From Eledone cirrhosa (Eukaryota): a stretch of DNA of 64,000 nucleotides. The stretch spans positions 294,810,001-294,874,000 of the forward strand of contig OZ024740.1 in assembly GCA_964016885.1 (NCBI GenBank), in the 5' to 3' direction. This document shows positions 12,333-38,333 of this stretch, one piece after another (position 1 is the first letter of the stretch; each line of letters begins with the position of its first letter). A program made the translations under genes and the position numbers. The notes beneath the pieces were generated by a model. It was given only the letters and a program-made list of their open reading frames with translations, ran no database searches and had not been told where the DNA came from.

Positions 12333-12461
12333 TCAACCGTCAAGCTGTTTCAGGATATCTTCCCTATCATGTAAAATTTTCCAAACTGCATCCTTCTCTT
12401 TCTTGGTTGGTTGTCTCTTTTTCTGTCGTGCACTTTGTACTTTACGATAGGCTTCAAGTAA
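12333..12461 (-). CDS. TADA3: TADA3 last coding exon (LLEAYRKVQSARQKKRQPTKKEKDAVWKILHDREDILKQLDG*)
   Basis: acceptor ttattttag; 129 nt ending TGA; ARQKKR.PTKKEKD..WK...R..ILK.LDG closely resembles the vertebrate TADA3 C-terminus. Confidence 0.96.
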   Translation of the reverse strand, partial: LLEAYRKVQSARQKKRQPTKKEKDAVWKILHDREDILKQLDG

Positions 12462-13844
12462 CTAAAATAATGAAAAAGAAATAATATTTTAGCACCTATT
12501 CAGTGGCAGAGACTGATTGAGTGAAGTCTCAATTTGTTAATTTTTCCATACAGAAAAAAATGTAAATTTATCAACCAAATATTACATTTATTAGTTAGTG
12601 CAGCAGTATTTAATTAGCATTGTGTTTAAATACTTTTTTCCAAAACTTTACAACGCCTTCTTACAATATTATTCTGGAGTTCCTGTGCCAAAGTTAAAAA
12701 TCATCATCATCATTTAATGCCTGTTTGCCCTGCTCTCAAGAGTTGGATGAGATGTCACATACCAAGTCAGTACTTACTTGGAGCCACTGATTTCTCAGAT
12801 GTGTCGGGTTTGCTTAGAGTAAGGAAAGGCATCCAGCCATAGTAAACCTACCAAACTAAAGGTCGGGAGGATTCTTCAACTGTGTCAAAGACATGACAAC
12901 TTCCCTTGATAGTGTGTGGAAACAGATACAGTAAATGAAATACAGGGCCCTTGGCCCATCTGAGACATAAGTGGCTCCGATTAAGTATTGCTTTGGTCTG
13001 TGATGAACAGTCCAACCCTTGCTAACAGGGAAATGTTAAATGATGATGACAATAATTATATAAACACAGGCTAAGTGACTCTCCATAGAATAATTTTACA
13101 ATGGGTTACTTCATCTCTGAAAGATGCCTCAAGCTATCCCTACAAAAATTATAAAGATTACTAAGAACTCCTGCTCCCATTTTTGTTGTTGTTTACTCAA
13201 GCAGAGAAGGTAGAGCAGGATCAATGACCCATTTCAATGCCTTCATAACTGATGAAAAGAAAGAGTGCTCTCAAGAACCAGGCAGTGAAGAAGGAAAGTT
13301 CGAAATGAAGACTACTGCCTGAAGTGTTTGTAACTGCACAGTCATTAATAAACTAGCAAAATACAGCATTGACACATATATTGTGAGATAATGATTCGGC
13401 TTGTGAATTATGTTAAGAGAACACATCTATGGAATACTCAGCTGCCCCTCACATATTTCATGAGTTGGCATGTAGTTGATCCAACAACTAAATACTCATT
13501 GTAGAAAGTGATGGAGAATCAGACCATCTAATGATGTGGAGCAATCACATTTAAACAATCTTATCATGAGTTAGACGGGTCCACCATGCCGGGGGGCAAG
13601 TTTGGCCATGTATTTTACATCTGGATGCCCTTCCTAACACCAACCACATTTACAATGTGGAATGTCATTTGATAAAATATAGCAAATACTGGGGTTAATA
13701 TAATAGATTTAAACCCTGCCTCCCAAAATATGCTGATGCCTAAAATAGAAATCGCTATTGCCTCAGTACATGTTTCAATGAAAAAATGAATTTTTAAAAA
13801 CATAAGCTAAAACTTGTTTGTTATGTTTAAGTTTTAACTAAGAA

Positions 13845-14338
13845 CAAAATTTAGTAACTGACATCCAGGAAGACTTGCTCAATTGCACCTCACAAAAGCA
13901 ATGACACAGGACCAAAATCTCTGGCGTTATGCAGTAATACAGAAGACCTGACTTTCCATGGGCACAGGCGAAGCTAAAGCATATATATAGTATACACCAC
14001 CCCACCCTGCCCACTCCCATACATCTCCTATGAGGACAACCTGAAGTATATATCCAGTGAAGCCTCCAGCCCACATTGTAAAGTGGTTGTGTAAGTGTCA
14101 CAACAAATAGCACCCAGTCTACACTGTAAAGTGGTTGTATAGGTGTCATGACAAAAAGCACCCAGTACTCACTGTAAATGAGATTGGCACTTAGAAAGGC
14201 ATCCAGCTGCAGAAACCAAGACAAATCAGATCTGTATGAGCAAGACATGGTCACCTGACCTGGCATTGCTTACAACAGGATAACTCGTCTAACCCATGCC
14301 AGCGTGGAAAATGGACGTTAAAATGATGATGATGATAA
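13845..14338 (+). mobile_element. RTE LINE 3' end with (GAT)n tail
   Basis: similar to 49010-49485 and 45690-46070; ends ccatgccagcgtggaaaatggacgttaaaatgatgatg. Confidence 0.75.
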
Positions 14339-14414
14339 TGACTTCAGCATCAAGAGCAACTGTTGGTAATGTCTAAGTTTTAACTAAGAGGGACATTAAC
14401 ATTTAGTAACTTAC

Positions 14415-14608
14415 CTCAGCATCAAGAGCAGCTAATTTTTTCCTAAGCTTCTGAGATTCCATTTCTTCTCTGGCCAACTTTATTAATCGTTTTGTCATTA
14501 TTGTGTTTTGATGATTGATGGCTTTTAATTCTTCCTGTTTTCGACGTAATTCTGATAGAATCTCATCATCTGGGTTATCTTCAACTCTTTCATCAAAATC
14601 CAAAATTC
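14415..14608 (-). CDS. TADA3: TADA3 coding exon 8 (GILDFDERVEDNPDDEILSELRRKQEELK...KKLAALDAE)
   Basis: acceptor ttgcag, donor gtaagt; 194 nt, phase 1 to 0; DE(I/V)LxELRxxQxELK Ada3 domain motif. Confidence 0.96.
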
Positions 14609-14766
14609 CTGCAATTTAAAAAGAGAAAAGAAAGAAAAACTTGTTTAAAATTCCACAAATGCATCCCCAAAACTATATAATTCAAGATATTAAAATCTGC
14701 TTCTCAGATGGAAAATAACCTCCACCTCACAAATAAAACAATAACAACAAACACTAGTGTTTAGGA

Positions 14767-15375
14767 CAGGGGTCAGCAACCCCTGGCCCACGAAGGATTT
14801 TTGTCTGGCTCACCAGCAGGTTTCAATTTTAGGCTAAGTGAACCCTGAAAAAGTGCTCTGAATTATTTTGGATTAGAATACCGACTAGAGATGTCTAGCC
14901 ACAAGACTCACTTAGCTGAACGTAATATTTTGTGTGGCAATAACAAACTCAGACAGATAGAACAGTCAGACATTGAGGCCAACAGGACTGTGTGTGCTAG
15001 TATCATTATTTGGCAGTATGTATACCAAAGATCGATTAAGAACAAGGCTGCGTGATAACCATCTGGACAATGTTCTACTCTTGTCCACGACAAATATTTC
15101 ACCTGATGTATAGAAGCTATCCAACGACAGGCAAAAACAAGCATCTCATTAAACAATTTACCAGTTCTACCTGTATTTTATTTGTAGTAAGGAATGTCAT
15201 TAAAGTAATATCACATAAAATTCATTGTTCTTCTTTTAAACCCCGGGATTAAGGTAGTCTTTTGGACAGAGAAGTCTGAGGTCGAGCAAATTTATTATAT
15301 TTTGATTTTATGGCCCACCGACGAGACACTGCATAGTTATGTGGTCCGCACACCCCAAAAGTTTGCCGACCCTTG
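14767..15375 (+). mobile_element. Non-autonomous hAT element
   Basis: TIRs caggggtcagcaac and gtttgccgacccttg; perfect 8-bp TSD gtttagga at 14759-14766 and 15376-15383. Confidence 0.92.
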
Positions 15376-15466
15376 GTTTAGGAGATAATTTCAAGAAATT
15401 AAGAATTAAGTTAATTTGAATGTTTAGAGGGAAAAGACAGTCTGATCTTTGCAGGCAATGGACAAC

Positions 15467-15505
15467 TGTGGACATGTTTCAGTCAATTAAACCTCATCAG
15501 TATCA
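15467..15505 (-). ncRNA. Minimal type I hammerhead ribozyme-like motif
   Basis: minus strand CTGATGA GGTT-taatt-GACT GAAAC-at-GTC: conserved core, stem II and palindromic stem III; stem I weak. Confidence 0.55.
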
Positions 15506-15666
15506 TGCCGTCTAATTGAGCTTACATCTCTTAGCTCATTTGATTTTTAATTTAAGATATGTCACTTGAACATAAATGTGTTTCTATGTAATTTACAGTA
15601 AACAGTAGCGGCGATGTGAAACTAATGAAATGATGGTACTCAGGTAAATATGTTATGTAAATTAAC

Positions 15667-15774
15667 CTTGTTCTTCTAGTTCTTTTTTAATTCTTTTCTC
15701 AAGCTGTACTGCATTACTGATATTTAGCTGTTTGGCTAACATCTTTGGAGAAATTGATGGTGGATCTTCCAAAT
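15667..15774 (-). CDS. TADA3: TADA3 coding exon 7 (DLEDPPSISPKMLAKQLNISNAVQLEKRIKKELEEQ)
   Basis: acceptor acatttcag, donor gttaat; 108 nt, phase 1 to 1; LExRIKxEL motif. Confidence 0.93.
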
Positions 15775-16131
15775 CTGAAATGTAAAAAAGTTCATCAAAT
15801 ATTTTGTAATATTAAAAACAGATCAATTTCTATTCAACATTTAATACAGATTTTATTGCCAATTATCTTTAAAACAAAATTATTGTATTTGATGCATATA
15901 AGAGCTCCCTCATTTCAGAAGGGAATATGAAAAAAAAAATGGCTCAGCATTTAATGGTATTAAAAGATGTAGCTCAACTTCACAAATAAGACCTGGATGA
16001 TATTATTTTAGTCTTTTATGGTAAAAGAAAAGTGGGTCTTTTATTTCAAATACTGACAAAGCAAAATGAAAGTTTTAGATATGATTCAATGAAAACAAAA
16101 ATAACATATTACATAAACATAATCATCATTT

Positions 16132-18480
16132 AATAATAATAATAATGAAAATATTGTGTACAGTGCTCAGGTGCACTACAACTCATCAAAAGTGTATGTA
16201 TAGTACATAGGGTAATGTACAAACGTCAGGAAAATGAACAGTGCATAAGTCATGATATACACATGTGTGCATGTGTATGGAAGGGGGACATCAGGTGTAG
16301 TTTTGGCGAATTTCGGGAAGCATGAGGGTTTTAAAGGATGCAGTGTCTCCTCGGCAGCTAACAACTGACGCAGGCAGATTGTTCCATGCTTCCGCAACTC
16401 TAAGCATGAAAATATGTTTCCGAAAGTCATGGGAGCTGTGCTGTTTTCTGACTGTGTAGGCATGTCCACGTGTGTTAGACACATGGAGATTAAAAAGGTG
16501 CTCAGGGTTGTTGTTGGCGAGATGGTTAATAACTTTGTGGGTGTTTACCAAGTCCATTGCCAGGTGTCGGAGCTTCAATGAATCCATGCCCAGGGAAGCA
16601 AGGCGTTCAGAGTATGGTAGATGCCTGATGGAGGGTATGCGCTTGGTTGCACGTCTCTGAACAGTTTCCAGGAGGTCAATGTTCTGAGCAAGATAGGGGT
16701 TCCAGACTGATGATGCGAATTCCAAGTGTGGTCGTACCATAGCTGTATACAGCTTTAAATAGATGGCTGGAGAGCGGCTAACAAAAGTCTTGCTGAGTGA
16801 TGCCAAGACACCCTCAGCCTTCTTGACAATTTTAGAGATGTGCTTTGTCCAACGCAAATCGCTGCTGACAGTAATGCCCAGGTCACGTTCACAAGAGGAC
16901 TTCTTGATATCAGTGTTGTAGAAGGAGTATGTGGATGCTGGATTTTTCCTCCCAAAATGCATGGTGGTACACTTGTCCACAGCCAACTTCAGTTGCCAGT
17001 CTGTGATCCATTGCTGCATTGTGTCCAGGTCTGATTGTAGGAAAGAGTTATAGATTTCAGGATCTGTCCTTTTGATTTCAAGGTACAGCTTGATGTCATC
17101 TGCATATTTCAGTACTGTGGCATTCTTTAAGTTGGCATTTATGTCATTAATGTATGTAACAAACAAAAGGGGACCAAGAACAGATCCCTGTGGTACACCA
17201 GATGACATCTCATATGGTGTTCTAGAACTGTGACTACCTCTTTTCGGCTGAGAGTGAAGGATTTCAACCAGTTAAAAAGATCATCATTCACACTCATTGC
17301 AGAAAGTTTTGCCATAAGTCTTTTGTGTGGCACAGAATTAAAAGTCTTAGTGAAGTCAAGGTAAACAACATCCACCCATGAGCCGCTGTCAGTGATCCGG
17401 GTAATGCCTTCAAGGAACTCGCAGCTGGAGTTAGGGATAAATCCAAATTGCGAGGGCCGGATGAGGTTGTGAGAGCTCCAGAAGTTCCAAAGTGTTTCTC
17501 TGACACAGGATTCCATCAGTTTGGCCATACAGCTAGTAAGACTGACTGGACGATAGTTGACAGGTGACGTGCGGTCGCCCTTTTTGAACAGGGGAATGAC
17601 ACTGGCAGTTTTCCACTGCTCCGGAGTAGCACCATTGTTGAGACAGTATTGAAAGAAGAAAGAAAGAAAGCTGGTGCAAAAGGAAGTACCCGCCACGTTT
17701 GAGAAGCAGGTATGTAACACCATCAAGACCAGGGGAGGCATAGTTGCGCTTATTCTTAAGGTGATGTCGCAGCATTGCAGGTGTAAATTCCATAGTTGTT
17801 ATGGAATTTGTTGTTAGAGATAGTGGAGATAGTACATTCTGGTTTTCAACAGTAAAAATGCTTGCATAGCACTCAGCAATGAGTTCTGCGCATTCTTTGG
17901 GATCGTCAGTGATCTGGCTTGTGTGGGGATTGCGAAGAGGACCAACTGGAGAGTGAGGTCTCTGCTTTGAATGTACATATTTCCAGAACACCTTACTGTC
18001 AGGATTAGTTGCTATGCACTGTTCAAATTCAAGCACTGCCTTTTTTGTCACTTGCTTGAGATGGTTGGAAGATTTATTCCGCCTTTTTCTGTTGGCATCT
18101 GAATTATGCAGTTTATATTCCCGTTCAGTATTCCGACCTTCTTTCCTGGCAAGTCGGACTGCTGAAGTTTCCCAAATTGCACTTTTGGGGTGGTTTTTTT
18201 TCTGCTTACGTGGCACTGATGCTGCACACGCTATCCATATTGAGTCCAGGATGCTCTGGAGTATAGTGTTCACATTTCCAGAGTTATAGAACTCATGCCA
18301 GTTTGGGCGCTGAAGCTCAGTGCAGTACAAGTTCCAATCTGCTTTCTTCCAATCAAAGCAAGCAGATTAGAGATGGTTCTGGTTTTTGTTGCTGCCTGCA
18401 AGAGCCAGATTGGCAATGATCATAGCATAATCAGAGTTGCCTAGAGGTTCCTCAGTAGTACAACTGATAACCACTTCAGG
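16132..18480 (-). mobile_element. 5'-truncated CR1-clade LINE (frameshifted ORF2)
   Basis: NYRPVSLTS, YLDFTKTFNSVPH, SGVPQGSVLGPLLF..YIND, YADD, ERDLG, RPHLEFASSVWNP; (ATT)n tail. Confidence 0.95.
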
Positions 18481-18496
18481 AGTAGATATGCTTTCT

Positions 18497-18782
18497 CTGC
18501 TAGCAAAGTTGAATAAGTTGTCAACAGATCAGATTAGTACTTAAGCATAGCTACTGACGCCACACGTGTTCTGGGAGCCTGCATCACATTCCCTGCTAAC
18601 GCAAGGTTGAATAAGTTGTCAACATACCAGATTGGTACTCAAGCATAGCTACTGACTCCACACATGTGCTGGGAGCCTGCATCTTGTTCCCTGCTAGCAA
18701 AGTTGAACAGGTTGTCAACAAACCAGGTTGGAACTCAAGCATAGCTATTGACTCCACACATGAGCTGGGAGCCTGTATCTCG
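18497..18782. repeat. Tandem repeat, about 97-bp unit, 3 copies
   Basis: ctgcta.caa.gttgaa..gttgtcaaca..ccag...actcaagcatagcta.tgac.ccacac...ctgggagcctg.atc repeated. Confidence 0.9.
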
Positions 18783-19499
18783 CTTACATATGTTCTACCA
18801 AGTGCTCAGACATGCCTGTGGCCCACAACTCACTTTCATCATCATTGTTTAATGTCAGAAAGGGTTGGACGGGTCAACAGACCAGGTAAGTACTCAAACA
18901 TAGTTACTGATCCCAAGATGGGCAGGTAGTCTAATTACATATGATCCTGTATTCTATCAAGTGCATTTTATCGTGACACCAACATTACAAAGATTGTCAT
19001 GTTTTTGACACAGCTGAAGAGTCTTCCTGACCCTTTGTTTGGCAGGTTTTCTATGGTTGGATGCTAATCATTTTACAGAGTGCACTGGGTGCATTTATTG
19101 TGTAATTCACCAATCGTAGGGATGTTGTCATGTTTTTGATGCAGCTGAAGAATTCTTCTGACCCTTTGTTTGGCATTGAATATATATTATATGTTTATGA
19201 GATGGTCATTACATAAAACTGTTACTAAAACCAATGCAGGAGCCTCTTGACTTGCTAAAAATAGCAACAAAGTCTCTCAAATCATAACCCCATCTTAAAT
19301 ATCACATTAGACAATGTAACTCCTGATAAGATGGGATGGTTATGGTTGGAATGTTTTTGATAATAAGTCTGTTTAATTGGGGCTGACCAGAGGCTAAACA
19401 ACACCAAAAAATTATCACAACATACAATATATTATGAAACAAGAAACAAATCCCAAAACTAAACTTTATTTACAAAGCATTAGTGCCTTAAAACCGACG

Positions 19500-19975
19500 C
19501 CTGGAAATGTTACTATGAGAGAATGTAGAGAAAAAATGGGAGGAAGAGAAACCACCTCCAACACATCCAACAGAAAAGCAAGCCATTAAAGAACAATCAG
19601 AGAGATGAAAAATGGTTAAGCTGCAGGACCATCAGAGATAGTACCGAGATGCTAAAAGCATCAGAAGAAGTAGGAGTCAAACCCACATAGTCAATCAGGT
19701 AATACAGAACGGTGCAATAGTACAATCGTAAATTGCTACAAGGGCAAAGGTGATGCCCTAGAAAGGATTAACTATAGAGGAATAAGACTACCATTCATTA
19801 TAGTTCTCCAGGAGTTTAAGACCAGCTACCTATGGGAACTTCTCCATGCAGATGATCTGGTCCTTATAGCTGAATCCATTAAAGAAACTTAGCCAAAACT
19901 AAAGTGCTAGTGAGTAGGAGAGAAGATAGGACCCTGATCCCATCAGGGAAGTAACCCTGCTTAATATGTAGAAAA
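19500..19975 (+). mobile_element. Internally deleted RTE ORF2 relic
   Basis: segments encoding VNCYKGKGDALE..NYRGI and WELLHADDLVLIAES. Confidence 0.75.
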
Positions 19976-20735
19976 TCTATCCACAGTCCATGATTTTACT
20001 CACCAATCTACACAGTTCATTATTTTACCCACCAATCTACCCAGTTAATGATTTTACCCACCAATCTACACAGTTCATGATTTTACCCACCAATCTACTC
20101 ACAGTTCATGATTTTACCTACCAATCTACCCCCAGAGTTCATGATTTAGCCCACAATTCATGATTTTACTCACAGTCCATGATTTACCCAACAATATAAC
20201 CACATCCATGATTTTACCTACCAATTTACACAGTTCATGATTTTACCCACCAATTTACACAGCCCATGATTTTACCCACAGTTCATGATTTTACCTACCA
20301 ATTTACACAGATCATGATTTTTACCCACCAATTTACAAGGAGTTCATGATTTAATCTACTCAGAATTTATGATTTAACTCACAGTCCATGTTCTTCTCTC
20401 AAGTGCTGGGGTCAAGAAAAATGTACCCAGTGCAACTTGTAAGGTGATTGGCAATAAGAAAGTCATGATTTATGTACCAATTTACCAAAGGTAAATTTTA
20501 CCCACCAATTTACACAGTTCATTATTTTACCCACCAATTTACACAGTACATTATTTTACCCACCAATTTACACAGTTCATGATTTTACCCACCAATTTAC
20601 ACAGTTCATGATTTTACCAGCCAATTTACACAGTTCATGATTTTACCTACCGATTTACTCACTGTTCAATATTTTACCCACCAATTTAACCAATGGTTTT
20701 AATTTACCCATTAGTTTCCACATGATTTAACCTAC
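19976..20735. repeat. Degenerate minisatellite, about 29-30-bp unit (acacagttcatgattttacccaccaattt)
   Basis: over 20 variant units, interrupted at 20390-20466. Confidence 0.92.
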
Positions 20736-21349
20736 GAATTTTGTTACTTTAACTTTTCTATTGTCATATTTCTAATGAAAGACTGCCTATGATTTGAAAA
20801 TAATTTTGATGATCAGGAATTTGAAAAGATTTGTAATATGACTTTCTCACCGTTAAGTTGGTCTTTGGAATGTGGTTTGCATAATATTATGATGAAAAGT
20901 TTATCCTGCCCCTTCCCTTAGTGTAGAGAGGGTTCTTCTCTCAAGTGCTGGGGTCAAGAAAAATGTACCCAGTGCAACTTGTAAGGTGATTGGCAATAAG
21001 AAAGTCATCCTGCTGTAGAAACCACGCTAAAAAGGGGTTGAGAGGACTCTTCAGCTGTGTCAAAGACATAACCTCTATTGTGCTGGTGCTATGATAAAAT
21101 GCACTCGATAGAGAGTAAGAACATATGAAATGTGGGTCCCTGGCCTGTCTGAGCATTCAGTAGAAGCAAGAGGCAGCCACCCCTCCTTCCTGGCCCATCT
21201 GAGATGACAGTAGCTTCACTCGAGTACTGACTCAGTTGGCGACAACTTGTCTAACCCTTGATAGCAAGGAAAAGTGATCTCTAAATGATGATGATGATAT
21301 AAAAAATAGGTACCATAGGGAAAACACATCTTAAATGACGATAATGCTC

Positions 21350-21705
21350 TTAACCAAATATACACCCCAATCCACTACCCCTACTCCATCCTCCCACTCT
21401 CTGTAAAGTTGGTACCACAACATCCAGTCCAAATAAATGAGAAAATGAGATCGAGATCGTGTAGGTGTCACGACAAAAAACACACAGTCCACGCTGTAAT
21501 GTGGCCGTGTAGGTAACACGGTAAAAAGTTCCCAGTCCACACTGTAAATGTAGTTGGTGTTAGGAAAGGCATCCAGCTGTAGAAAACCTGCCTGATAGTC
21601 CTATATGAGCGAGACACAGTCACCCGACCAACCTTGCCTCAAATTGGGACAACTTCCATCTAACCCATGCTAGCGTGGAAAATGGACGTTAAACGATGAT
21701 GATGA
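21350..21705 (+). mobile_element. RTE 3' UTR copy
   Basis: close match to 45735-46065. Confidence 0.8.
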
Positions 21706-21762
21706 AACACTTTAAAATAAACAGTTTTGTATGATAGAAAAAGATTTGTAAGTGTTACATAC

Positions 21763-21875
21763 CTTTAGTGCTAATATCTGTTGTAGTATCATCAACAGGT
21801 GCCATTACATGTTCTTCAATAAGTGCAGTAACAAGTCGCTGAGTAAGAGGACCAAATGGAGAGTCATCATTGGAA
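21763..21875 (-). CDS. TADA3: TADA3 coding exon 6 (SNDDSPFGPLTQRLVTALIEEHVMAPVDDTTTDISTK)
   Basis: acceptor tttcctttcag, donor gtatgt; 113 nt, phase 2 to 1; PFGxLTQRLxxALxEE ADA3 motif. Confidence 0.96.
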
Positions 21876-23466
21876 CTGAAAGGAAACAAAATAGCAATAA
21901 CTAATTAGTTATTAAAATATACTCAGTATTAATGTCTTTAAATCTATGAGCCAAACTGTAAATATTTTACTTCAGTTACTTCAGAAAGATATGATCAGGT
22001 ATACCCCACAATATATGACCAGGCACAACTCTCTCTTCTAAGCCACCTCCATGACCCAATGTTTCCTCTCCCATGATGGTATGAACACCCTCGCACCAAT
22101 ACCTCCTTAGTGCTGGTGCCATGATACAATTCATGCAGCCCACTCTCAAAAATGGTAGTGCTGATGCCCTGATAGAATGCACCCAGCCCACTCTGTAAAG
22201 TGGTAGTGCTGGTGCCTTGATAAAAGCACCCAGATAACACTGTAAATTGGTAGTGCCAGATGTATGTTAAAATGTTTCCAGTTCACACTGTAAAGTAACA
22301 TTAGGAATGGCATCTAACCATGGAAACCGAGCCAAAAATGAAGTATACGAGCAAGACATGGTCACCTGACCAGTCTAGCTTCAGTATGTAACAGGACAAA
22401 CTGTCTAACCCATGCAAGTATGGAAAATAGATATTTGATGATGATGATGATCATCATCATCATCATATCAACTACTTTTCTCTCTGTTATAAATATAAGG
22501 CCTTCTATCAGTGTAAGAAATCAACATTTCCCAAACTAATGAGTTTCAGAAAGATCAGGGATTGTCATCATCGCACAAACAAGGGAGAGTTAAAAACTGT
22601 CACATGACATGCAAGATTTGAAATAATGATTTAACAATGAAATGTTTCTTAACCAAGTGCATAATTTATTTAGCAGTAGTCTGATTTAGTGATTATATGG
22701 TTGTTATTGTTGTTTATCCCTCCCCATTGGTATTGACTGACCAGATCTGTGGTCAAAAGCAATCCAGTCATGACCACGTCCTTTTTCATATATTGTTTAC
22801 TTAGACATTTTAATCAATGTGTTTTTTATTATTAAGATGTTAAGGCATGTGAAAGCCATATTTAGTCGCTTCCTCCCAACAGAAAAAAAAAAAAGCAAAA
22901 TTTAAAATTCATTCATTTTTTCTTTTTTTTTTTAAATACAGATTCAATATCTTAGGCTAAATCAATCAAGTTTTTAATTCAATCGACAGTCGATCGACTT
23001 TCATCAAATCGGTTCGAGGAAATAGTGTTTGCATTGCTCTTTCCAATTGCCAATACTATCTATCGGTCGCAACTCCAGGTACAAGGAGCAATGTAAAATA
23101 AAGTGTCTTGCTCAAGGACACCTGGTCCAGGAATCAAACTCACAACCCCACAATTGCGAATCCAATTCTCTAACCTTTCAGCCACGCACTTTTACATACA
23201 CTACTTATATTTTATACTTACTGAAACATATAACACAAATTATAAGTGAAAGTTTTAATCTTTACTCAACCCAACAGTAGATAGCATACAAGTGAATATG
23301 ACAAATAATAAGAACAAAATTTAAAAAACTAATAAGGAAGTAACAGGCAACAAGTCAATAGCAGAAGATAAAAAAATAATCAAGCATGTTAGAAAAAAAG
23401 GTTTTACATCCAGTGCAAGGAAGAATACTCATGTTAATTGAAGAAATATTTTAACTGCATTATGCC

Positions 23467-23665
23467 TTAACCCTTTAGCATTTAAACCGACCGTATCCGG
23501 CCAGAATATTTTCATCTCTTTCTGTTCAAACCGACTGCTCATACTGATGTTAAGGTATTGTTCTCAAAATAAATAATAAAATCAAAATCTCATTATATGA
23601 GATAAAGCCTTTACCATGAAAATATAATAGTAAATATAGAGTAATGTAAAATGCTAAAGGGTTAA
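23467..23665 (+). mobile_element. piggyBac-type MITE
   Basis: TTAA-ccctttagcattt ... aaatgctaaaggg-TTAA: perfect TIR with TTAA TSD. Confidence 0.92.
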
Positions 23666-23962
23666 GCTAATTTTTCTGACATTTTTTGAACAGCTACTTG
23701 GGAGTTTTAAACTGCATACCAATTTCATTTAAAGCAAAAGTTATTGACTTGGCAAGATGACTTCAGTTCCAAAAACTAAATAGCTTTTATAAAAAGAAAA
23801 AGAAGAATTGAACTTGTTTTTTCCTCCCTAATTTTCTAGCTGTGGCAAAAGGCAAGTTAGGTAGAAAATGTAAAAAAAAAGAATTATAAAGGAGGTAGGA
23901 TCAAGCAGAATTTGAAGTAAAAATAAGTAAATGAGGGTCAGGGGAATCAAATATATACTCAC

Positions 23963-23968
23963 CCTTTC
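23963..23968 (-). CDS. TADA3: Candidate 6-nt microexon GAAAGG in TADA3 intron 5
   Basis: taactaac branch point, pyrimidine tract, TGC, caacag|GAAAGG|gtgagt; frame-preserving. Confidence 0.65.
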
Positions 23969-25523
23969 CTGTTGTATGTGCAACAAGAAAGAAACAACAG
24001 TTAGTTACAGTATTTTTTTTAGATTATTTTCACAAAAATCTTACTAGTAACTAAATAATATACTTATAAAATTCATTGATTTTGTAATGTACCCCCACTC
24101 CCACCTCATACACTGCTGGTCTTGTACTTAGTCAAGAGGGATAAAAATATTTATTGAATAACAAGTTTTCTCTTATTGTCATCTGCTTAAATTTTCAATA
24201 GATAACTAAGACAGAGAGGATTCCATAGTCTTGTCTGTGCTACGATGAAATACACCCAATACACTCTCTAAAAAGGTTGGTGTTAGAAGGTCATCCAGCT
24301 GTAGAAACCATCATCATTATCATCACCGTTTAATGTCCATTTTCCATGATAGCATGGGTTAAACAGGTTGTCCTATTTGAGGCAAATCAAGGTCAAATGA
24401 CCATGTCTTGCTCATACAGAACTGATTTTGGCTTGGTTTCTATGGCTGGATGCCCTTCCTAACGCCAACCACATTTACAGTGAGTACTGGGTTCTTTTTG
24501 TCATGACACCTACACTACCATTTTATAGTGTGGGCTGGGTGATTTTTGTTGTAACCTACACAACCACGTTACAAATAAAATGCACAGAGAGCAGTAATTC
24601 TAGATAGGAACTGATTTGGACTGCAACGACCTCTCCATTCCATGCCAGCATGGAAAGCAGATGAATAATAATGATGATGATGAAACAAGTTAAAATGAAA
24701 AATAGGATAGTAGCATTTATAGCATATATTTCTTAAGTAAGGAAGAAAACATTTTTATGAGACTGTGAGTTAACAAGGGAAGATCTATGTGGTTCCTCAG
24801 CCTACTAGAAATAGCAGTATATTAGATAATTGTTTCTACTTTTGGTACAAAGCCAGCAATTACCCAGTACATTACTGGTACTTTATCTTATCGACCCCGT
24901 AAGGATGAAAGGCAAAGTTAACCTTGATGGGATTTGAACTCAGACTGTAAAGGGACGTAACAATGCTAGAAAGCATGGCGTCCAACCCTTTAAATGTAAT
25001 CCTAGATACCCTTAAAAAAAGATGGGATGGGATGGGCACCACTGGAATGTCTGTTCATAGGTCTGCTTAATCAGTATTGATGGAGAGGGAGGAGAGGAAA
25101 GGCCTGAACAACAACAGTATAACTGGATTAACAGTTTTAGTAAAAGTGGACAGTTCAGGTTTGTAGATTACATTTGGATACAATATGAGATAACAGAAAT
25201 TCCCTTCTTATCTAAAGTATTGCAGCTGCTGCACTTTTGCAACTACAGTTTAATATGCAAGTGCAGATTCAATCTGAATTATAGCATAAAAAACAAAAAA
25301 AAAAAAACTTCCGTTCAGCTACATTCCAGTAAAATATATTGGAAGTTTAAAGAGAAACAATTTCTGAAAATACTGTACATTTTTTTTCTTTACATATTTC
25401 ATTTTATATTATATAAAAATGTAAACATGAATTTGGTCCCACAAACCTAAAACGTTTCAGTGGGTAGCATTTCATAAAGAATAAGTTCAGAAATTAAAAT
25501 AATAAAGAACAGATATTACTTAC

Positions 25524-25617
25524 CAACTATCAGACTTTTTTAACAGGTTGGAAGATTCATTGGAATTAGTTGCTGTTGAATTATTGATATTCCGTCGTTT
25601 GTCAGAGATCTTGGCCC
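25524..25617 (-). CDS. TADA3: TADA3 coding exon 5 (GAKISDKRRNINNSTATNSNESSNLLKKSDS)
   Basis: acceptor aatag, donor gtaagt; 94 nt, phase 1 to 2, bridging exons 4 and 6 in frame. Confidence 0.88.
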
Positions 25618-26498
25618 CTATTACGTAATAGAAGTGAAAAGAAATGTTTTACTAATTCGCTAAAATCTCTTCAGATAAGTTTAACCACACTTTCATTACT
25701 ATATATCTAATCAAAGACACTGCCTATGATTTTCACATCATTTTCAAAATAATCAAGACTATGCAGGATTTAGTAATATAACTAACTTGTCCATTATTAA
25801 GCTGGTGTTAGGTACATAACTTAACAAAGGTTCTTATAAAAAATTTCGATTGAAATTTTTTTTAATATAAATATAAACATTTTAAAATAAGTAGTTTTGT
25901 TACAGAGTACCAGGAGTGGCTTCCTGACACCAACCCTTTTAGCTGCTTCTTATGACACTAAACCAAACACACACATATATACACTATCTCATCTGTATAT
26001 ATAAGGCAACACTTAATGAAAGATCAGAACTTGTGAAATGTGAAACATTTGTCCTCCTTGCTATATGTGAACAATATTTCCTTCATTTCTTTGTTATTAT
26101 AATTTCTAGGATAATATTGTCATAACAGTAACAATTAGAGTGGTGTGCAATAGTGGCAAAGAAATGAAGCTAAAAGAGTAGAAATTATGAGAAGGGATCA
26201 AAGAAAATAGGAACTGTAGAGAGTATGAGAGGGGGTGAGTACTGACAATAGGAACTACGCTGTGTATGTGTATATGTGTTTGTTTGAATGTATGTCTGTG
26301 TTTGCATGTTTATATTTATATACTCATATATATAAATGTGTGCATATGCACATACACACACACACATATGCGTCAGCTTATGGAAAAAAATTCTAGTGTT
26401 CAAAATTCATTGATATACATAGGCAGTATATTTCCTTAAAATATCGTAACAAAAAGATATATTCAATATCAAATAGGATGTTAACTTTAGTTATGTAC

Positions 26499-26748
26499 CT
26501 TCTTTTTGTTCATCCATGATATCTTCTTGAGCCCATCGTTCTGAGTAATGTTTACCCAAAGGTGGGATTTTGAAAAACTCGCTATCATCTTTGATTGTAA
26601 CCAAAACTTCTTCTAGAACTTTCATATCTTCGGCACTGATTTCTGCACAGTAAGGATCAACTGATGCCCAAAATCGATTTACAATATCGTTCTTCTGACT
26701 ACGAGCTATATCAGAAGATTCTGACATGTCATAGTCAGGCATTTTCAC
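26499..26748 (-). CDS. TADA3: TADA3 coding exon 4 (VKMPDYD...NRFWASVDPYCAEI...KIPPLGKHYSERWAQEDIMDEQKE)
   Basis: acceptor tctctag, donor gtacat; 250 nt; hallmark FWASVxPYC and IPPLGKHY..RWAQED motifs. Confidence 0.97.
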
Positions 26749-26891
26749 CTAGAGAAAGTACAACAAATTATATTAAAAACTATAAACAAATTATATTAAA
26801 AAAACTACAACAAATTATATTAAAAACTAAAACAATATTTTGACCCTTAATTATCTGAAAAGTTTCAGAACTTTCAAAAGTTTTCATTCAC

Positions 26892-27104
26892 TTAATCCTT
26901 TAGCATTTAAACCGGCTGTATCCAGCCAGAATTCTCTCAACCCTTTCGGTTCAAACCTGCTGTAATCGGCTGCTCATACTGATGTTAAGGTATTGTTCTC
27001 AAAATAAATATTAAAATCTCATAGATTCGATATTGTGTGAGATAAAGCCTTTACTGTGAAAATACAATAGTATACATAGATTAATGTAAATGCTAAAGGG
27101 TTAA
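26892..27104 (+). mobile_element. piggyBac-type MITE
   Basis: TTAA-tcctttagcattta ... taaatgctaaaggg-TTAA. Confidence 0.9.
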
Positions 27105-28580
27105 TAAGTCACTTTTCAGTTATTTTTCCTTTTTTTAAACAAAATTATGCTTAAACTAATACAAATGAACATACATAGTATGGCATGGGCCTGTAACTGT
27201 TTATAGAACCATCATGAAATACAACATGTCTTGGGCACTTTAACCTGGCAGAGCCCATCCCATTCCCAGGTTGGAATACATTTGATTTCTTCCAGAAAAT
27301 AAGAGAGATTGAGAAAAAGATATAAAGGAAGAATCGACCCCAGTACTAGACAGGTATGATTTATGTTAACCTTGAAAGGATGAAAGGCAAAGTTGACCTC
27401 AGCAGGATTTAAAGTTCAAGAACACAAAGAGACACAATATTTATATAATAATAATAATAATTTTCACAGCATTCTATCAATTCTGCCATTTTGCCACACA
27501 GTATATGTACACAACAAATTTACATTCTAAGCTAAATATTCTCTACAAGACTTTCTCAGCTTTCATGCAAGATAACATTACTAATGGAAGGTAAAATACA
27601 ATTGGTCATTTACTACTGTCAATCTTCCACATTCACAGCTCATGCCTCACTATATGCAGCATCACACTTTTGGGTCTTAAATAGCTGCTCCCTCCACACT
27701 TATTAAATTTTGTTAACCTATTTGCAGTGAGATTTTATTTTAAGTGGTAACATTCCTGTGACAATTTTCTGTAGACATTAAAAAAACATTATACATGACA
27801 AAAAACTACATTACAAGAAATCCCATATGTTATAAAATAAATATGATAGGTTGGAGTCTCAATATGTAAACTAAATGACTAATTCTGGTTTAAAAAAAAA
27901 TCAACGGAGACAACCTAGAAAAATTATTGATTCACCCCACTATTATTTGGGACCCGAGAATATGCTTCATATAGCCTGTTTTTAGTATAGGGAAAGAAAT
28001 CTTTCCTTGTGAACAGGTTACAACTCCTTTAATGCTTTCTACTATTCTTTCTCTATGTATGGGCCTGTAACTCCTGATGGACTCATAGAGGAGCTGTCCT
28101 GATACATGCCATGTCTTGGGTATTTTAAACTTGGTAAAGCCCATTCTTCTCGAAGTTTTAACACAGCCGAATTTTCTAATAAAAGGAACGTGAGAAAGAG
28201 AGAGAAAGTGAAAAAGAGATGTGGAATTGATCCTAATACTTTTTTTCTTTCTTGACCATGAAAGGATGTAAGGCAAGGTTAACTCCAAAATGAAGATTGT
28301 AAAGCATTCTATTCAACATTCTAATAACTCTGCCAATTTGTCGTCTGAATCTTTAGTTACTTGTGCCTCTTTACATTAGGATGAATATTGAAATGAACTA
28401 AAATCTCAAAGACTTAAAAATATATATATGAGAAAAACACAGACATCTGACCTGCCTTGTCTGACAACGGGACAACCGGTCTAATCTATGCTAGCATGGA
28501 AAAATGGACGTTAAACGGTGATGATGAAGATGAAGAAATGTGTGCGTAAAATCTGAATAGTTAAAACTGAATTTACTAAC

Positions 28581-28718
28581 TTGTGAATTTTTGTTTTTTG
28601 GCCTTCCTGGTCCACTACAATGAGTAGCTTTCCCATTACTGTCTTTAAATTTTTTGTTTGGTTTATCTTCAGCTCCACTTCCACCTTTTCCCCGCTTTAC
28701 AACTGGTACATCAGAAGC
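28581..28718 (-). CDS. TADA3: TADA3 coding exon 3 (ASDVPVVKRGKGGSGAEDKPNKKFKDSNGKATHCSGPGRPKNKNSQ)
   Basis: acceptor tttttctacag, donor gttagt; 138 nt, phase 0 to 0; GPGRPK.KN as in vertebrate TADA3; not in the ORF track. Confidence 0.92.
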
Positions 28719-30569
28719 CTGTAGAAAAAGAAAATGAAAGGAACAAAAAAAAAAAGAAAAGAAAAGAAAAAATCCCTAAATACACATACACTCTTGTATA
28801 AATATTTAAAATATCAAGCTCTATAATATAGTCTAAAAGAAAATTGAGTCAGCAGACATTACATCTGAAATATATTAGTTCAGTCTTTTTTTACTGGTTC
28901 CAGCCATTAATTATTTTATTAATATCCAATCCATCGAATTTCAAAGTTATGCTTGGACGGACATAAAAGGACACAACTTGACACACCAATAAACATTAAC
29001 ACAAACACTACATACATAAGATATATATACATATATGGGCTTCCACACAATCTCTGTCTACTAAAGACCACTTACACATAGCATTGGTCAACCAAGACAC
29101 TTAGAATTGAACTGAGCCTACAGCTTGTATTACTTTCCAAAATAAATTCTCTAATTATAAAAATGAACAAAGTATTATGTTATCAACACGTATTAAAAAT
29201 TCAACTAAGCAAAAATATACAGAATAGTTGAAAGAAAGATGTAAAATGTTTAAACAAAATGATGAAAAATTATTGCATAAGAAAATAAAAAAAAAAGTGA
29301 AAAGCTTATAACCTATTTTTGATAAATTATTAGCGAAATCTTAAATCAACTAATAATGAAAAATTCAGAAAACCTTAGCCAAAACAAAGTAGTTTCTAAA
29401 TTTCAAACTTCCAAAATAACCATTTAATTGGAATGACTTCATTCTAGCAAGCAGACTGCAAATTATTGTTAATTTTCTAATTATTTTTGAATTTAATTTA
29501 TTGGGCTAGGGACATTGACTAGCTCTAATGAACATATTTTAAAAGAAATTATTATTTTGAGAAGGCAAACTGAGCAGATTTAAATATCATGGAAATATGT
29601 GTGCACTAATTTGAAATCTGATATATAAACTATTTTGATCCAATGTAATATGTATACATAGCATTTCAATTTAGAACAAATGCAAAATTATAACTGAGTT
29701 GTAAATTAAATATGGTTTTTGTTTAATGATGAGATGTTTTAAAAGTATTCAGTTTCAGTGACTATATTGATATGGATAAAACTAAGATTGTCTACATATA
29801 TTTTACTCTATGCTCATCTGAATGGGTGGTTTCAATTGTGCTGAAATAATGCTCCTATAATTGAATTCTGTTCCTAATGCTAATCACCCAGTCTATGGTA
29901 AAGATGGGACTTATTTCATCAACCGGGCCAACCGAGACAAACATATTTCACTAGTCTATTTACTCCCTTATCAATATTAAACTAATAATATTAACCTGTA
30001 TTATTGCATAAGTTAAAACACAATTTAGAGTTAATAATATATGTAACTTAAAGCCACTAATACTAACTGGATCAAATGATTAAAACAAAATATATTTTTC
30101 TATTGTTTTAATAATATAATTAGCTTATTTCATAATTAGTGACATGGAATACTGACATTATTTTTATAAGTAAAATTATAGCTTAACTTTTAATTGACTA
30201 CTTTTAGTTTTAGTAAAATGCTCTAAACATTTTATGACAATAAGTACACAATAATTCTCATTTTTGTGAAAATTTAAGCAATTTAATGTTTTGTCTGAAT
30301 AATTTTTCATATCATCATCAGAAAGACTTTAAAAATCTTTAAAAGCTTGCCAAACCAACTCTTTCTTGATGCTATAAGACTGGAACATACAGTAATACAC
30401 TCACACACACACACACATATATATATGAATGAATGCGTGTGTGTATATATATATATATTTGTTTATGTTTTGTTTAGAAAAACATAGAAGTGCCTAATAC
30501 AGGCTTACAGGTTACAGTACCTTGCATTGACCCAGGTGCCCTGTCCAGAATTACCTATATATTTATATT

Positions 30570-31230
30570 TCTTTCTTCAACTGTTGATTTTCAAATCAAT
30601 TTTGAGTGTTGTGTTGTTCTTTAAGTGGCAGTAATTAAATGATCTGTCATGTTGATGCAAGAAATTTCTGAATGTGAGACCTGGCTAACATGTTTTTTTT
30701 TGTGATTATGTCAGTGCAATAGATAAGGTATTTCTCCCTTCAGGAGACAGAGTTCCATACTTCAGCAAATGCATGTTGGGATTTATATTTCTTGATCTGT
30801 TCACAATAATTTTGCACTTCTACTCTTGATAATACTGGGCATGATTGGCATGCATCTGAAGCTTACCTTATATTGTTTTTGTTGAACAACCGGTTGAATT
30901 TGTGGCTGTTGAGGAAATGTTTCTTGATAATGAGAGGAATTTTTTGCCACATCACTTTTCATGTTGATGTTATGTGGTGGGTTATACCATGTCATTTTCC
31001 TTTTCCTAATCCTTTTAAGATGAACATATATTGTTACAGCTGAGTACTTTATTTTTCTCTGTAGTATTCTGTGATCTTGTTGAAGATGGCTTTCTATGAG
31101 GCTAAGTTACCCAGTCTTCTTGAGAATGCCTTTAGGAACATATTTGTTGATTTGTGTAGCTTCATTTTTGTAAGCATATAAAATGTGTTGCTGTCTGGTT
31201 TCTTGATGATATTGTGCAACTTCAATGTAA
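30570..31230 (-). mobile_element. Degenerate Penelope-like element fragment
   Basis: RKRKMTWYNPP...YKVSFRCMP.M.SII resembles the conserved WFNPP...KVSYSCMPN linker between RT and GIY-YIG in PLEs. Confidence 0.65.
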
Positions 31231-34200
31231 ACTTGTGTGTAACGCTTATGTGTGCATACAGAATGGTAAAATTTCCTCTGAAAAATGGTAGAAACCAGAG
31301 CTCTATAATATAAATTCTATTTGCCTTTTTCTTTATTGCTGCTGTTCTTCAAGTTACCTTCCAGAATAACACGATTCATTTTGCTGACGCTTTTCTTTTA
31401 GTAGCTCTCTCTGTCTCTCTCTCACACACACACACACAAAAGATCATATGAACTGCTATATCAACTGATTCTCAGGAGAAGGTAAATCCTGCCGATTAAT
31501 TATAAGCCTGAAAGAAAAAGAACAGGTGAACCTCCAGCTGAAGCCTTAGAGGTTTTCTGCAGGTCCTAATACTTCAATCAATAACACCAAGCTAAACACG
31601 ATGAATAAGTTTCCCTATTTTTGACAGCAGCACATGTCACATCAGATGATGAAATTTCAATCAATTTCTGCCAAGTAAATAAGGTATTTGCAATCTTTCT
31701 CCACTGCACTAGAACAATGTTGGTCCCTCTCTTTTACTGTGTTTGTCTGCATATGTAGTACCAAATGTGCAACTTCTTCTTCTCTTATCAGCAATAAGAC
31801 ATGGGATTGCTACGATAAACAAATCACCTTGATTTTGCTTTAATTATTTTACCTGTTTTCTATTATTTGCAGGCTTTCTTTTAATATCATTATTTATTTA
31901 TTACATGCCTACTCACAACTAGCTAAGAGATATTTTGTAGAATATTTTAATGCTGTGCCTGATGTAAGCGACCATCATTCAAACAAACACACAAGGGGGA
32001 ATATATATATATATATGTATATGTGGTGTGTGGGTGTGTGTGTATAAAATTAAGAGTAATAAAGCAGGTAAATTTGAAATCATTGGATAAGAAGATGAGA
32101 ATATTGTATGTTGAAACCTGAGTACTATTAGCAAGATTTTTAGCATTACAGTTCCAAAAATGTGGATCACAGTAGCAAATAATAACAGATTTATATCCCA
32201 ATTATAATTAAATATCACACAAGAGAAAGTGTTAATTCCATTTCATTCATGCAAGGCTTGGGGATAATCTTGGGATAATTAGCATTATCAACATCATCAT
32301 CCTCATCATCATAAAAGTTGTTTTTTGATCCACTGCTTGACACAGGCCTCCCACATCACTCCTCATTTTCCCCTAACTCCTGTTCTAGCATTCCAGTTAA
32401 TCCCTGCATGGTTTATTACCTCATTCCTCCATCTGCTTCTTGGACGACCCTATGTGAGGAAATACAGAATACCAAATAACATTAATGTTATTTTTGCTAA
32501 TTAGTTATTTTATTTGTTGAATTAGTAATATTTTTTTTAAAAAAGCAATAAAATAATTATAACAATTGATAAAGAAATAAAAAAAACAGCTCTTAATATG
32601 AAAACAATAAAAAATAAAGGCAAAGTAAATGAAAACAAAACAATGAGAATAAAAAATAAATACAACCAACCAAAACTTCCTAATTAATATGAAGAAATGA
32701 TGAACTTGCCCAGTTATTAGCTACAATATAATTACACAATGCTAACGAAGTGTATTTGATTGGTACTGAAAACATTGACAGTTGGTAAAAAATGTTCCCA
32801 ATCAGCAAATAGCATTTTTTTGAAAAATCTTCCAGATTATACAGTAGAGATGTGGTTAGGTGGAAATACCAAACCTTCAGCAGCTGTATAAAATCTAGAA
32901 AAGAATTAGTCACATGAAATATAGAGTCCCCATACCAATTTCTACTAACCATACAAAATTATTTTATTAACTTTACTTTCCTGCAGCCCAAATAAGAATA
33001 AAGTGATTAAAATAAAATGAAATCATATTGAAACTAATGTTAATAAAACAAGTTTTTTAAAGCCCGTTTCCTATGATAAAAATGGAATATGATAGAATGG
33101 TTGTGTTTTATTAATAGTAAGCTTTGGCATTACTCAAAGACTTTCCAAAATTTACTCTGTCTTATAGAATATTTCAGCACAATATTTGCTGGATAATAAA
33201 AAGTATAAATCAGTTATAATTATTTGTAACTTATCACAATCAAAATGTTTTATCCACAAATTTCCAGGTAAAAAAAGTTATATGGAATAAATATGTCTTA
33301 TTGAAAATAATTTTGTATAATATATTTATAATTGTAAGTTATGTAGTATGTTGTTTGTCATATACTGCTTTCTGTGTTACATGAATTATATACTGTACAG
33401 CACAATTAGACACAACAAGACAGAAACTAAATAGGAACACACAATAATCTACAATTAATTGACAGATACTTGATCTTTGAAATTAATCCGATGGAGTTTT
33501 ACATAAATTGGAATACCTGTACATATTAAATGAATGGAACAAATGAAAATTAATACCAAATTATCCGAGAAAGATTGAAGCAATTATTTTTGAAACACAA
33601 AGTGATGAAAATACCACAAATAACACTAGAAATACAACTGAGTTTATCTTTTGCCTACAGACACAGAAGACAGAACTGAAAGCAATTTTATTACACTAAA
33701 ATCAAATACGGATAAAAAAAACTAAACTTAAATAAATGAAACAAGTGTGGTGCTTAAATTATAACCACTGATAACAACAGAAAGAATATATCACTAACCA
33801 TGCAAAGTTTTCAAAATAAATTTCCTGTCCTTAGGACTTAATCTGATTCAATAAGGCAATGAGACAAAGGAAATGAAATTTATTAAAACAAGATGCTAGG
33901 ATTGAGATAAAAATTATAATTAGTTTAAAAATATAATTACCAATGAAGCGGGTCTAGAAAAGCTTTGATAACAAGAAAAGCAAGAGCAATAATGGAAAAA
34001 AGCAGACAGTACGGATAGGTTTACTAAATGAGGCAAAAATAATATAGTAATTTGCCGTAGGTTCTACAAGAGGTTTGAAAGGTGCAAGGGTTCTAGCCCA
34101 CAGAAGAAATATTTAAATAGAAAAGTGGCTATGGGATATGCAAGGACAGTGCATGAAATAAATTTATAATTCAAAATCTAAGAATGAAGCTAGTTAAGTG

Positions 34201-36353
34201 GTGTTAAAAATGCAGAAAAATTGAATCTAATAACTTACCTGTTTCTAAAGTTCCCCCACCCTCAAAAAGATAACTGAATAGATACCCTGATAATACATAT
34301 CATACTTTGTCTAATAGAAACCTGATAATCTATGCCAAAATGTGACACCACAAAGAATGATAAAGTTAATATTCATATCAAATAACTTTTTACATATTCA
34401 ACTTATATTATAATTTCTATAAGATTATATTTTTTCAAGCTAGTAGAGAAAAATGAAATCAGGGCACACATTAGAATATTGGTTTTCTTCATAAAGTTAG
34501 ATGCTGATGTTTAACCTTATTCTAAGAAAATGCTTAAACATTTTTTTTAATGTAAACATTTATACCTGGACCTTGTATTCCATTGTGAAGAAATATAACT
34601 ATATATTTCTGGTGAAAAAATTTAATTAATACTGGAGGTGTCTAGACTATTGTGTAGATAACTCAATCTATGTTTTGGATATCCATAAAAATATTTTTTT
34701 TAATGTAAGATTACAATATTCAATCCTAATTGAACTTCACTTGAAGGTCAGCTATTTCAAACTAAAGTAAGCTGAAAATAATTTCATATAAAATTTTAAC
34801 ATTGTTTTTCAAAAATAAAAAAAAAACACTCTAAGAAAATAATTATTAATATTAATTATTAAAACAGAGAAAGTCAAAACGGCCCTTTCAATGTTAAACA
34901 ATACACCAACAAACATATTCAAAAAGTTATATCTATTTTAGCTTAATCATTAGTGTTGGCTTGAAATTAGTTTTAATATCTTTATGATAGATAGTCCTTT
35001 TTGTGGACAAACTTTTATTTTATATCAATTCTTAGAAATAAGGTTATTATACAAATCCAGAATGTTTTCAATTGTACCCATCATCACTGTTTAACACCTA
35101 TTTTCCATGCTTCCATGGGTTAGACGAGAAAGTTTCTAGAATTAATGCTTATCTAATATAAAGTGAATAGAATTTGTAATTTAAGAAATAGCTACTCTAA
35201 CCGCTTCTTTGTGATCACTCAACATACTAGAAATAGCAGCAAAATTCCCCTCAAAGCAAACCTTACCAACTGAAAAAGGAAGGAAAGTGGCCATACCTAG
35301 AATGATTTTGATCATTAGTTGCTTTATTAAGACTAATTTTGGGCTAAATAACAGTTAACTGATGTAGATTTCTCAGATATTCAAATTACAAATAATTAAT
35401 TGCTAAGAGCTTTAAATCTTTTAGAAATTTATCAGTTTACAGTACTATAATATGATAAAAATTAACAACACAAATGTTAGTATTAGGAAGAGTTAAACCT
35501 TTAATCCTTTCTCTACCACATGAAAGACACTGACCATGATTTTAAAATAATTCTCATGAAGTTGAAGATTGGAACATAATATGAAATTATAATGGAAGGT
35601 TTTTTTATATAAATATAAGCAGTGTGTCATAAAACCTGGGTTGGTTTCAGAAGGTTTGATATCATAAAAGGTGAAAAAAAATCTCCTAAACTGGAACATG
35701 AAAGAACAGCATATATGTAAATATAAATAAAAACCATGCTAAGTACATAAATAAGAATAAACTAGTTAAATATAGGAAATTTCAAGAAATCCCTCTACCA
35801 ATTTATTACTTCAATGCAAAATGTTGATATCTGAAGTAAACTGCTAAATATATAATTTATGTACACATCAGCATCTAAGGTGACACATTTTCATTGAGTT
35901 GGTTTAAATTATTTATTTAAACACCATCCCTTTACCAAATCTTGTGTAGGTTTGACATTTTGCTGTGTAAAACTAGCTTCCATAAAAAACTGAAATATTT
36001 TATTAGTGCAAAAAGATAAATATCATCATTATCATCATCAATGCCTGCTTTCCCTGCTGTAATATTTTAAAATTGTATTCAGTATTACAGTTGCTAAGTC
36101 TCTCTATGTATTATCTCACACACTAGCAACAATATAATTATTCTTAAATAACATAAAAACCACTCCAAAATTAATGTTACTATTGCCACTGTGATAATAA
36201 AACCTAAGTTAAATTAATTTTAAAAAGTGTGTACCATATGAAAAGTTTCTGAAGTTTTGAACATTTCCTTAAAAGAATACAAAGGTGAAAGGCAATCAGA
36301 ATAAACACTATAACTATATTACATTGAGTGAAAAAAATTAAAGAAATACTTAC

Positions 36354-36401
36354 AGGAAAATTCTTCAAAGTTTCATTTTTATTTTTCACAACACTGTTCT
36401 C
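36354..36401 (-). CDS. TADA3: Candidate 48-nt alternative cassette exon in TADA3 intron 2 (ENSVVKNKNETLKNFP)
   Basis: ttttgtatctttcag|48 nt without stop|gtaagt; phase 0-0, matching the host intron. Confidence 0.55.
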
Positions 36402-36724
36402 CTGAAAGATACAAAATACAAAGCAAGAAACCTAAAGAACTCTGTGTTTTAAAATATCTGATGGAGTTTCATTTCTATATATGCAACACCATTAAATTCT
36501 TACTCACTAGTACACTGTTTCTAACATAAGCGTAATACCACAACTTTAAGAGAGCTTAGTCAATTAAATTGACCCCAGTACTTGACTGATACTAAATTTT
36601 ATCAACCCCGGAAGGAGGAAAAGCAAAGTTGACTATGGCAGCATTTAAAATGAAAATATAAAGCTTTTTGTCTGCTGTGTAAATGATTCTGCTACCAGTC
36701 ATTCATATTACTCGACTGTTCATA

Positions 36725-37028
36725 TAATAATAATAATAATAATGAAATTATTGTGTACAGTGCTCAGGTGCACTACAACTCATCAAAGGTGCATGTATAG
36801 TACATAGAATAATGTACAAATGTCAGGAAAATGAACAGTCATGAAATACATGTGTGCATGTGTATGGAGGGGGGGGGGCATCAGGTGTAGTGTTGGCGAA
36901 TCTCAGGAAGCATGGAGGTTTTAAAGGATACAGTGTCTCGACAGCTAACAACTGATGCAGGTAGTTTGTTCCATGCTTTAGCAGCTCTGAGCATGGAAAA
37001 ATGTTTTCGAAAGTCATGGGAGCTGTGA
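36725..37028 (-). mobile_element. Short 3' copy of the CR1 at 16132-18480
   Basis: close match to 16132-16440 including the (ATT)n tail. Confidence 0.9.
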
Positions 37029-37903: not shown

Positions 37904-37935
<32 letters not shown>

Positions 37936-38333
37936 GATACTTCTGCATTGCACAGCCTGTAAACTCTCCTGCCTTCCAAAATAAAGTTGATCCTTTTGGC
38001 CACTTGCCAAAGGATCTCTACCAAACTCTATCAATAGATATACTTTACTCTCTGGTTTTGGTACCACTACAAAGGTGGCTTCTGCTATTCATGTCACATA
38101 CTTTTAACTCACTTTCCTCTCCTTAGTTTTTACCCTATTTTGGTGTACAATCTTATTAGTCTCCTTTCCCACTCTGAGCTGCCAGCCACCTAGTATTTTT
38201 GAAAGCTGCCTCCCCACCACAGTACATGTTCTTACACTCTCTCCTCCTCTCACTGAGTGATGGCCCTCTCAGCACACCTCAAAGATCTGGCATCTGCTCT
38301 CACTCTCCTTTCATCCCAGAGTATGTGTGTGTA

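Follow-up and report, generated by a model that had tools for sequence, protein, structure and literature searches.

A six-nucleotide alternative microexon in cephalopod TADA3 with sequence features of the eMIC class

The window analysed in this study, a stretch of 64,000 nucleotides of contig OZ024740.1 of the octopus Eledone cirrhosa, carries the coding region of TADA3, a subunit of the SAGA/ATAC HAT module, on its minus strand (Table 1). One of the TADA3 exons in the window shares 96% identity with Octopus TADA3 and 95% with that of Argonauta, while the Pfam Ada3 domain (PF10198) is recognised in the Octopus orthologue P0083 with an E value of 8e-24. The fungal Ada3 of SAGA HAT-module structures was matched both by profile and by fold, two fungal chains being recovered by profile search, and the fungal Ada3 of the solved SAGA structures aligns across the microexon region; a single-sequence search of solved structures with TADA3 gave no matches, and no paper was found in the literature on the two fungal chains. 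Three of the exons are small (48 nt, 30 nt and 6 nt), and four isoforms of 463, 461, 453 and 451 aa could be built from the window.

The 30-nt exon (window 32420-32449, minus strand) is a second small alternative exon, encoding 10 residues rich in Arg and Trp, which is present in three octopod proteins and missing from three others and from all eight proteins of a second cephalopod cluster described below; its acceptor has no UGC within 40 nt. Two further elements of the window were observed. On the plus strand, opposite to TADA3 and a short distance upstream of its start codon, positions 43839-45689 hold an open frame of 617 codons that belongs to a non-LTR retroelement and encodes a reverse transcriptase and, behind it, a PHD finger, and an array of degenerate repeats of approximately 30 nt was recognised by eye at 19980-20700 (minus strand), in the intron that follows the exon at 21875.

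Table 1. Positions of TADA3, of the microexon with its splice signals, and of the exons encoding the candidate regulator (window positions unless a contig is named)
Feature	Position	Strand	Basis or remark
TADA3 coding region, 12 coding exons including the microexon	12333..43431	-	Octopus protein mapped; AG/GT ends
TADA3 exon before the microexon's intron (94 nt, ending in phase 2; GTAAGT donor)	25524..25617	-	Sequence and contig
Branch-point motif TAACTAAC, likely branch A 24001 (-33 from exon start)	24000..24007	-	Use suggested by consensus
Pyrimidine tract, 18 nt, 15/18 pyrimidines, two UCUU, without UCUC	23983..24000	-	Sequence
UGC motif, -14 to -12 from exon start; putative eMIC site	23980..23982	-	Sequence
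Microexon acceptor AG; 69 nt before it are free of AG	23969..23970	-	Sequence
6-nt alternative microexon, Cys to Trp-Lys-Gly	23963..23968	-	Sequence, spliced contig and W-K-G isoforms
Microexon donor GTGAGT	23957..23962	-	Sequence
TADA3 exon after the microexon's intron (113 nt), coding for the conserved PFGPLTQRL helix	21763..21875	-	Sequence and contig
Srrm234 eMIC-type exon	G000:C22:28167743-28167880	-	PF15230 match
Following Srrm234 exon, continues the domain	from 28146459 on contig C22, ~21 kb away	-	Located by motif; without a Pfam match of its own

The microexon is hosted by a phase-2 intron of 3648 nt (25523-21876). Translation confirmed that the protein reads DS-C-SNDD at the junction when the exon is skipped and DS-W-K-G-SNDD when it is included, with the frame kept and no stop introduced, as the original prediction had proposed. 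The minus-strand sequence quoted there, running from branch point through tract, UGC and 6-nt exon to the donor, reads as given, and its location in unique sequence was borne out by the 201 bases around the microexon, which have a single match in the 3.0-Gb genome. The numbering of the host intron as intron 5 was in error, as this intron follows the seventh coding exon, with the 48-nt and 30-nt exons upstream. The UGC is the sole one in the 300 nt upstream of the microexon, 9 nt separate it from the acceptor AG, and the AG-free zone compares with zones of 23-55 nt at the other 10 acceptors of the gene. By eye the donor is near consensus, donors of the eMIC class being strong in mammals and weak in flies. 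The acceptor of the next exon carries a CUAAU branch motif at -30, a motif of this type being found within 60 nt of three of the 11 TADA3 acceptors.

Taken alone, the combination of branch point, UGC and AG is common (26 matches against 26.5 expected). The whole layout was found once on both strands of the window as against 0.10 times per shuffled window (10 of 100 shuffles, and two of 100 when the length had also to be divisible by three), the criteria of this comparison having been set after the microexon had been seen; in 60 kb of another contig the whole layout did not occur. The sense strand of the TADA3 gene holds 21 YAG-3n-GTRAG motifs, one of them lying only 82 nt upstream of the microexon, and the microexon is the only one of these 21 short AG-to-GT motifs with both a UGC and a branch point. 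The neighbouring AG-6nt-GT motif at 24050 was rejected as an exon since it has no tract, branch point or UGC. Approximately 120 nt downstream of the microexon, at 23840-23860 (minus strand), an acceptor-like site combines CUAAC, two UGC motifs and a CAG; no transcript support was seen for this site, whose use after the microexon would meet a stop at once, so that it could be a poison exon or a decoy.

Four runs, all from one study and of unrecorded kind, matched a mostly intronic 4-kb stretch of the window. A contig of 1972 nt from one of these (run X4) follows the exons and skips the introns and is therefore a transcript. Between the exon ending at 26499 and that starting at 21875 it contains 100 nt, of which the middle exon accounts for 94, and beyond the end of this exon it matches the first five bases of the donor intron except for one mismatch, then shows one G and then enters the next exon, which is the pattern predicted by a 6-nt microexon. 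A single site in the host intron is flanked by AG, followed by GT and able to encode W-K-G. The six bases were also considered as the product of an alternative donor or acceptor; both origins were rejected, as a 6-nt extension of the upstream exon leads to a stop and an extension of the downstream exon to other residues. The including form is the only contig over the upstream exon (one record, depth 58; tissue unrecorded), and assembled contigs of this kind drop minor forms. A search among short protein fragments carrying the insert returned one, which looks unspliced. The 6-nt TADA3 microexon is confirmed as real, alternative and frame-preserving.

Besides this contig, the predicted W-K-G form exists among cephalopod protein isoforms. 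It is present in two of six octopod database proteins and absent from four, the carriers being P0084 (XP_029636098.1 of O. sinensis and XP_014769407.1 of O. bimaculoides) and P0083 (XP_029636100.1 and XP_014769423.1 of the same two species), and the insert occurs in two UniRef entries as well. The exon is consequently not hidden, as had been claimed, its product already standing in databases as an automatic predicted isoform; the related claim that it would escape standard annotation does not hold for RefSeq or UniRef, and is right for two GenBank models of O. vulgaris and for the single Argonauta model examined, all of which lack W-K-G. Including and skipping forms occur as twins (P0084/P0082, P0083/P0001 and P0087/P0086), and the four isoforms of the window agree in length with four octopod database proteins, with 11 differences each.

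A second cephalopod cluster, composed of assembly proteins, carries W-K-G in one of eight members (P0087), which is otherwise identical to its skipping twin. When counted by contigs, inclusion was seen in one of 22, and the commoner skipping is what would be expected of a tissue-restricted exon. TADA3 of this cluster is 80-83% identical to that of Octopus, and in a tree of 23 author-selected rows it falls within the cephalopods and outside Octopus plus Argonauta with a support of 100/100, from which we infer that it represents a squid or cuttlefish, a lineage that separated from the octopods approximately 270 million years ago. Among 286 proteins fetched, 263 bear the GxLTQR motif and three of these have W-K-G before it, all three being cephalopod, while bivalve, gastropod and vertebrate TADA3 isoforms, among the matches listed, show no extra residues at the insert site; the idea that vertebrates, or molluscs other than cephalopods, have a version of it was accordingly rejected. 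Compared as peptide, the microexon appears to be old within cephalopods and, as far as sampled, cephalopod-wide.

Concerning its regulation, PMC8797185 describes eMIC targets as having a long AG-free zone and a UGC near the 3' splice site, with a branch point of the CUAAY type, a tract rich in UCUC and, downstream, a further strong branch point, a layout presented there as largely unique to eMIC regulation, and a preprint (bioRxiv 10.1101/2024.09.17.613571) reports the UGC in 74-79% of eMIC targets, as a helpful and not strictly needed element. Of the features listed in PMC8797185, the TADA3 microexon has all except the UCUC tract, including the downstream branch point that is a feature of fly targets, so that the proposed eMIC-type acceptor stands in its branch point, UGC and AG-free zone and falls short in its tract. 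The latter is U-rich and contains no UCUC, the nearest UCUC/CUCU lying at -170, although this element is an enrichment of the class and not universal in it. By these features of the DNA, the microexon would belong to the eMIC class. The corresponding regulator is encoded in the genome, in which an eMIC-type C-terminus of Srrm234 was recognised by SRRM_C (PF15230) with 29.3-31.6 bits against a curated cut-off of 27; the last Srrm234 exon runs into an RS-rich tail and then a stop.

Fly and mammalian work suggests that the small size of such a microexon, and the distance that separates its branch point and tract from the AG, would prevent default recognition, and most cells would join the two strong flanking splice sites, leaving the microexon skipped. 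Where an eMIC-bearing isoform of Srrm234 is made, it would act at the UGC between tract and AG and would help to load U2AF/SF1, with inclusion of the microexon as the outcome. In octopus, splicing is highest in neural tissue according to PMC9699675. We consider neural, eMIC-driven inclusion of the TADA3 microexon to be probable. The best explanation of the data as a whole is likewise a probable one, namely that the 6-base exon of TADA3, which when taken in exchanges Cys for Trp-Lys-Gly in a predicted flexible linker, is included mainly in neurons and through the eMIC domain of Srrm234.

What this exchange would do to the protein was approached by predicting the structure of the form with the insert in AlphaFold2 (mean pLDDT 65.8, pTM 0.39). 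Residues 271-273, which make up the insert, lie there in a loop with pLDDT below 50 that connects helix 260-269 with helix 282-293, and they fall outside the Pfam Ada3 domain (331-436). The linker measures 13-29 residues across animals (measurable in 70 of 74 aligned proteins), helix 282-293 carries invariant residues, and the motif beside the insert has six. The yeast model described in PMC10226619 depicts Ada3 as helices joined by disordered linkers and touching all HAT subunits. ADA3 of the including form might still build into the SAGA/ATAC HAT module, and a bulky basic insert beside the invariant GPLTQRL helix might conceivably tune a contact or add a modifiable lysine. The effect on the protein is possibly small because the insert sits in a length-variable, low-confidence linker, and a small tuning effect, or none, appears most likely.

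It is quite conceivable, if on balance doubtful, that inclusion is neural and driven by the eMIC but that the insert itself is a near-neutral passenger, two additional residues in a floppy linker changing nothing measurable in the HAT module. The wide variation of the linker in length and sequence across animals, the low confidence of the modelled loop and its position outside the Ada3 domain would all agree with such a passenger, whereas the retention of an identical W-K-G in two cephalopod lineages whose TADA3 is 83% identical, and its place directly beside a motif with six invariant residues, speak against it. The question concerns function only, and an inert insert would be compatible with the explanation preferred here.

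A reading that does bear on regulation is that the microexon, real and alternative, is not neuron-specific or not eMIC-driven, being included broadly or also in muscle under MBNL-, QKI- or PTB-type factors, with the strong branch point and donor making the tiny exon usable. The 300 nt downstream of the microexon hold five YGCY motifs and an ACUAAY motif overlaps its branch point, sites which presumably offer binding to other regulators; together with the missing UCUC they would accommodate broad inclusion, as would the labelling of the inclusion isoforms as X1 in two RefSeq annotations and the existence of brain-and-muscle microexons such as the MEF2 beta exon (PMC11701043). The solitary including contig of run X4 fits a neural-rich sample and equally a broadly included exon. 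Set beside the layout of the acceptor and the prevalence of skipping in the second cephalopod cluster, inclusion of this broader kind is regarded as rather unlikely. That the exon is a chance motif or an annotation artefact, or that its bases arise where a flanking exon uses another donor or acceptor, is scarcely credible, since transcripts carry the insert, common as short AG-n-GT motifs are in these introns.

Mainly neuronal, eMIC-driven inclusion remains the preferred reading. This study demonstrates that reading raw octopus DNA for an eMIC-type code leads to a true 6-nt exon. For the cephalopod programme of neural microexons, in which no described target was found in the literature searched, the TADA3 microexon represents a conserved candidate. 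Should it prove neural and functional, SAGA/ATAC would join TFIID and LSD1-CoREST among the general transcription machines with neuron-specific microexon forms. At present, the exon belongs to a familiar class, its protein product has database entries already, and the effect of the insert may be slight. No paper was found that joins a microexon with TADA3 or names this cephalopod exon, nor was TADA3 found as a target in the eMIC papers searched. A preprint that quantifies O. bimaculoides exons by tissue (bioRxiv 10.64898/2026.09.05.749416) does not name TADA3 in the text examined, and its supplements, or the 2019 eMIC paper, may list the exon.

Among known systems, the four Octopus RefSeq isoforms given above share the same W-K-G insert in the same place and, as automatic predictions, are silent on tissue and regulation. 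With the microexons governed by eMIC, SRRM3/4 and Srrm234, as characterised in PMC8797185 and bioRxiv 10.1101/2024.09.17.613571, the TADA3 exon has in common a frame-preserving length within 3-27 nt, a CUAAY branch point, a UGC placed between the tract and the AG, a long AG-free zone and an encoded regulator, but it lacks their UCUC-rich tract and would be placed among them by its sequence features. The closest analogue is microexon 34' of TAF1 (N-TAF1), described in PMC6948980 and in a review (PMC11701043), another 6-nt exon with UGC upstream. It adds two residues, of which one is a lysine, and these too fall in an unstructured part of a protein belonging to a general transcription co-activator complex. 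TAF1 differs in being a vertebrate TFIID subunit whose microexon has a proven neural pattern and SRRM4 dependence, and in having two UGCs, at -18 and -29, as opposed to the single UGC of TADA3. Since the genes are unrelated, the resemblance is one of analogy and not of homology.

In the amphioxus Branchiostoma floridae, the TADA3 isoforms X1 and X2 (XP_035686971.1 and XP_035686972.1; P0197 compared with P0142) also show a difference of two residues in the linker that precedes PFGPLTQRL; the residues are others (RT), the isoforms are known here as proteins, and the difference could reflect tandem splice sites in place of an exon. An older B. floridae model is two residues shorter still. The most far-reaching reading would have cephalopod neurons build their own SAGA/ATAC HAT module by means of a TADA3 microexon that is eMIC-driven and has been retained from the early coleoids onwards, as a counterpart of N-TAF1, with an amphioxus two-residue exon having hit the same linker independently or ancestrally and the linker being a functional hotspot for HAT tuning; this we hold to be improbable. 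The amphioxus difference would itself fit the recurrent gains described in bioRxiv 10.64898/2026.09.05.749416.
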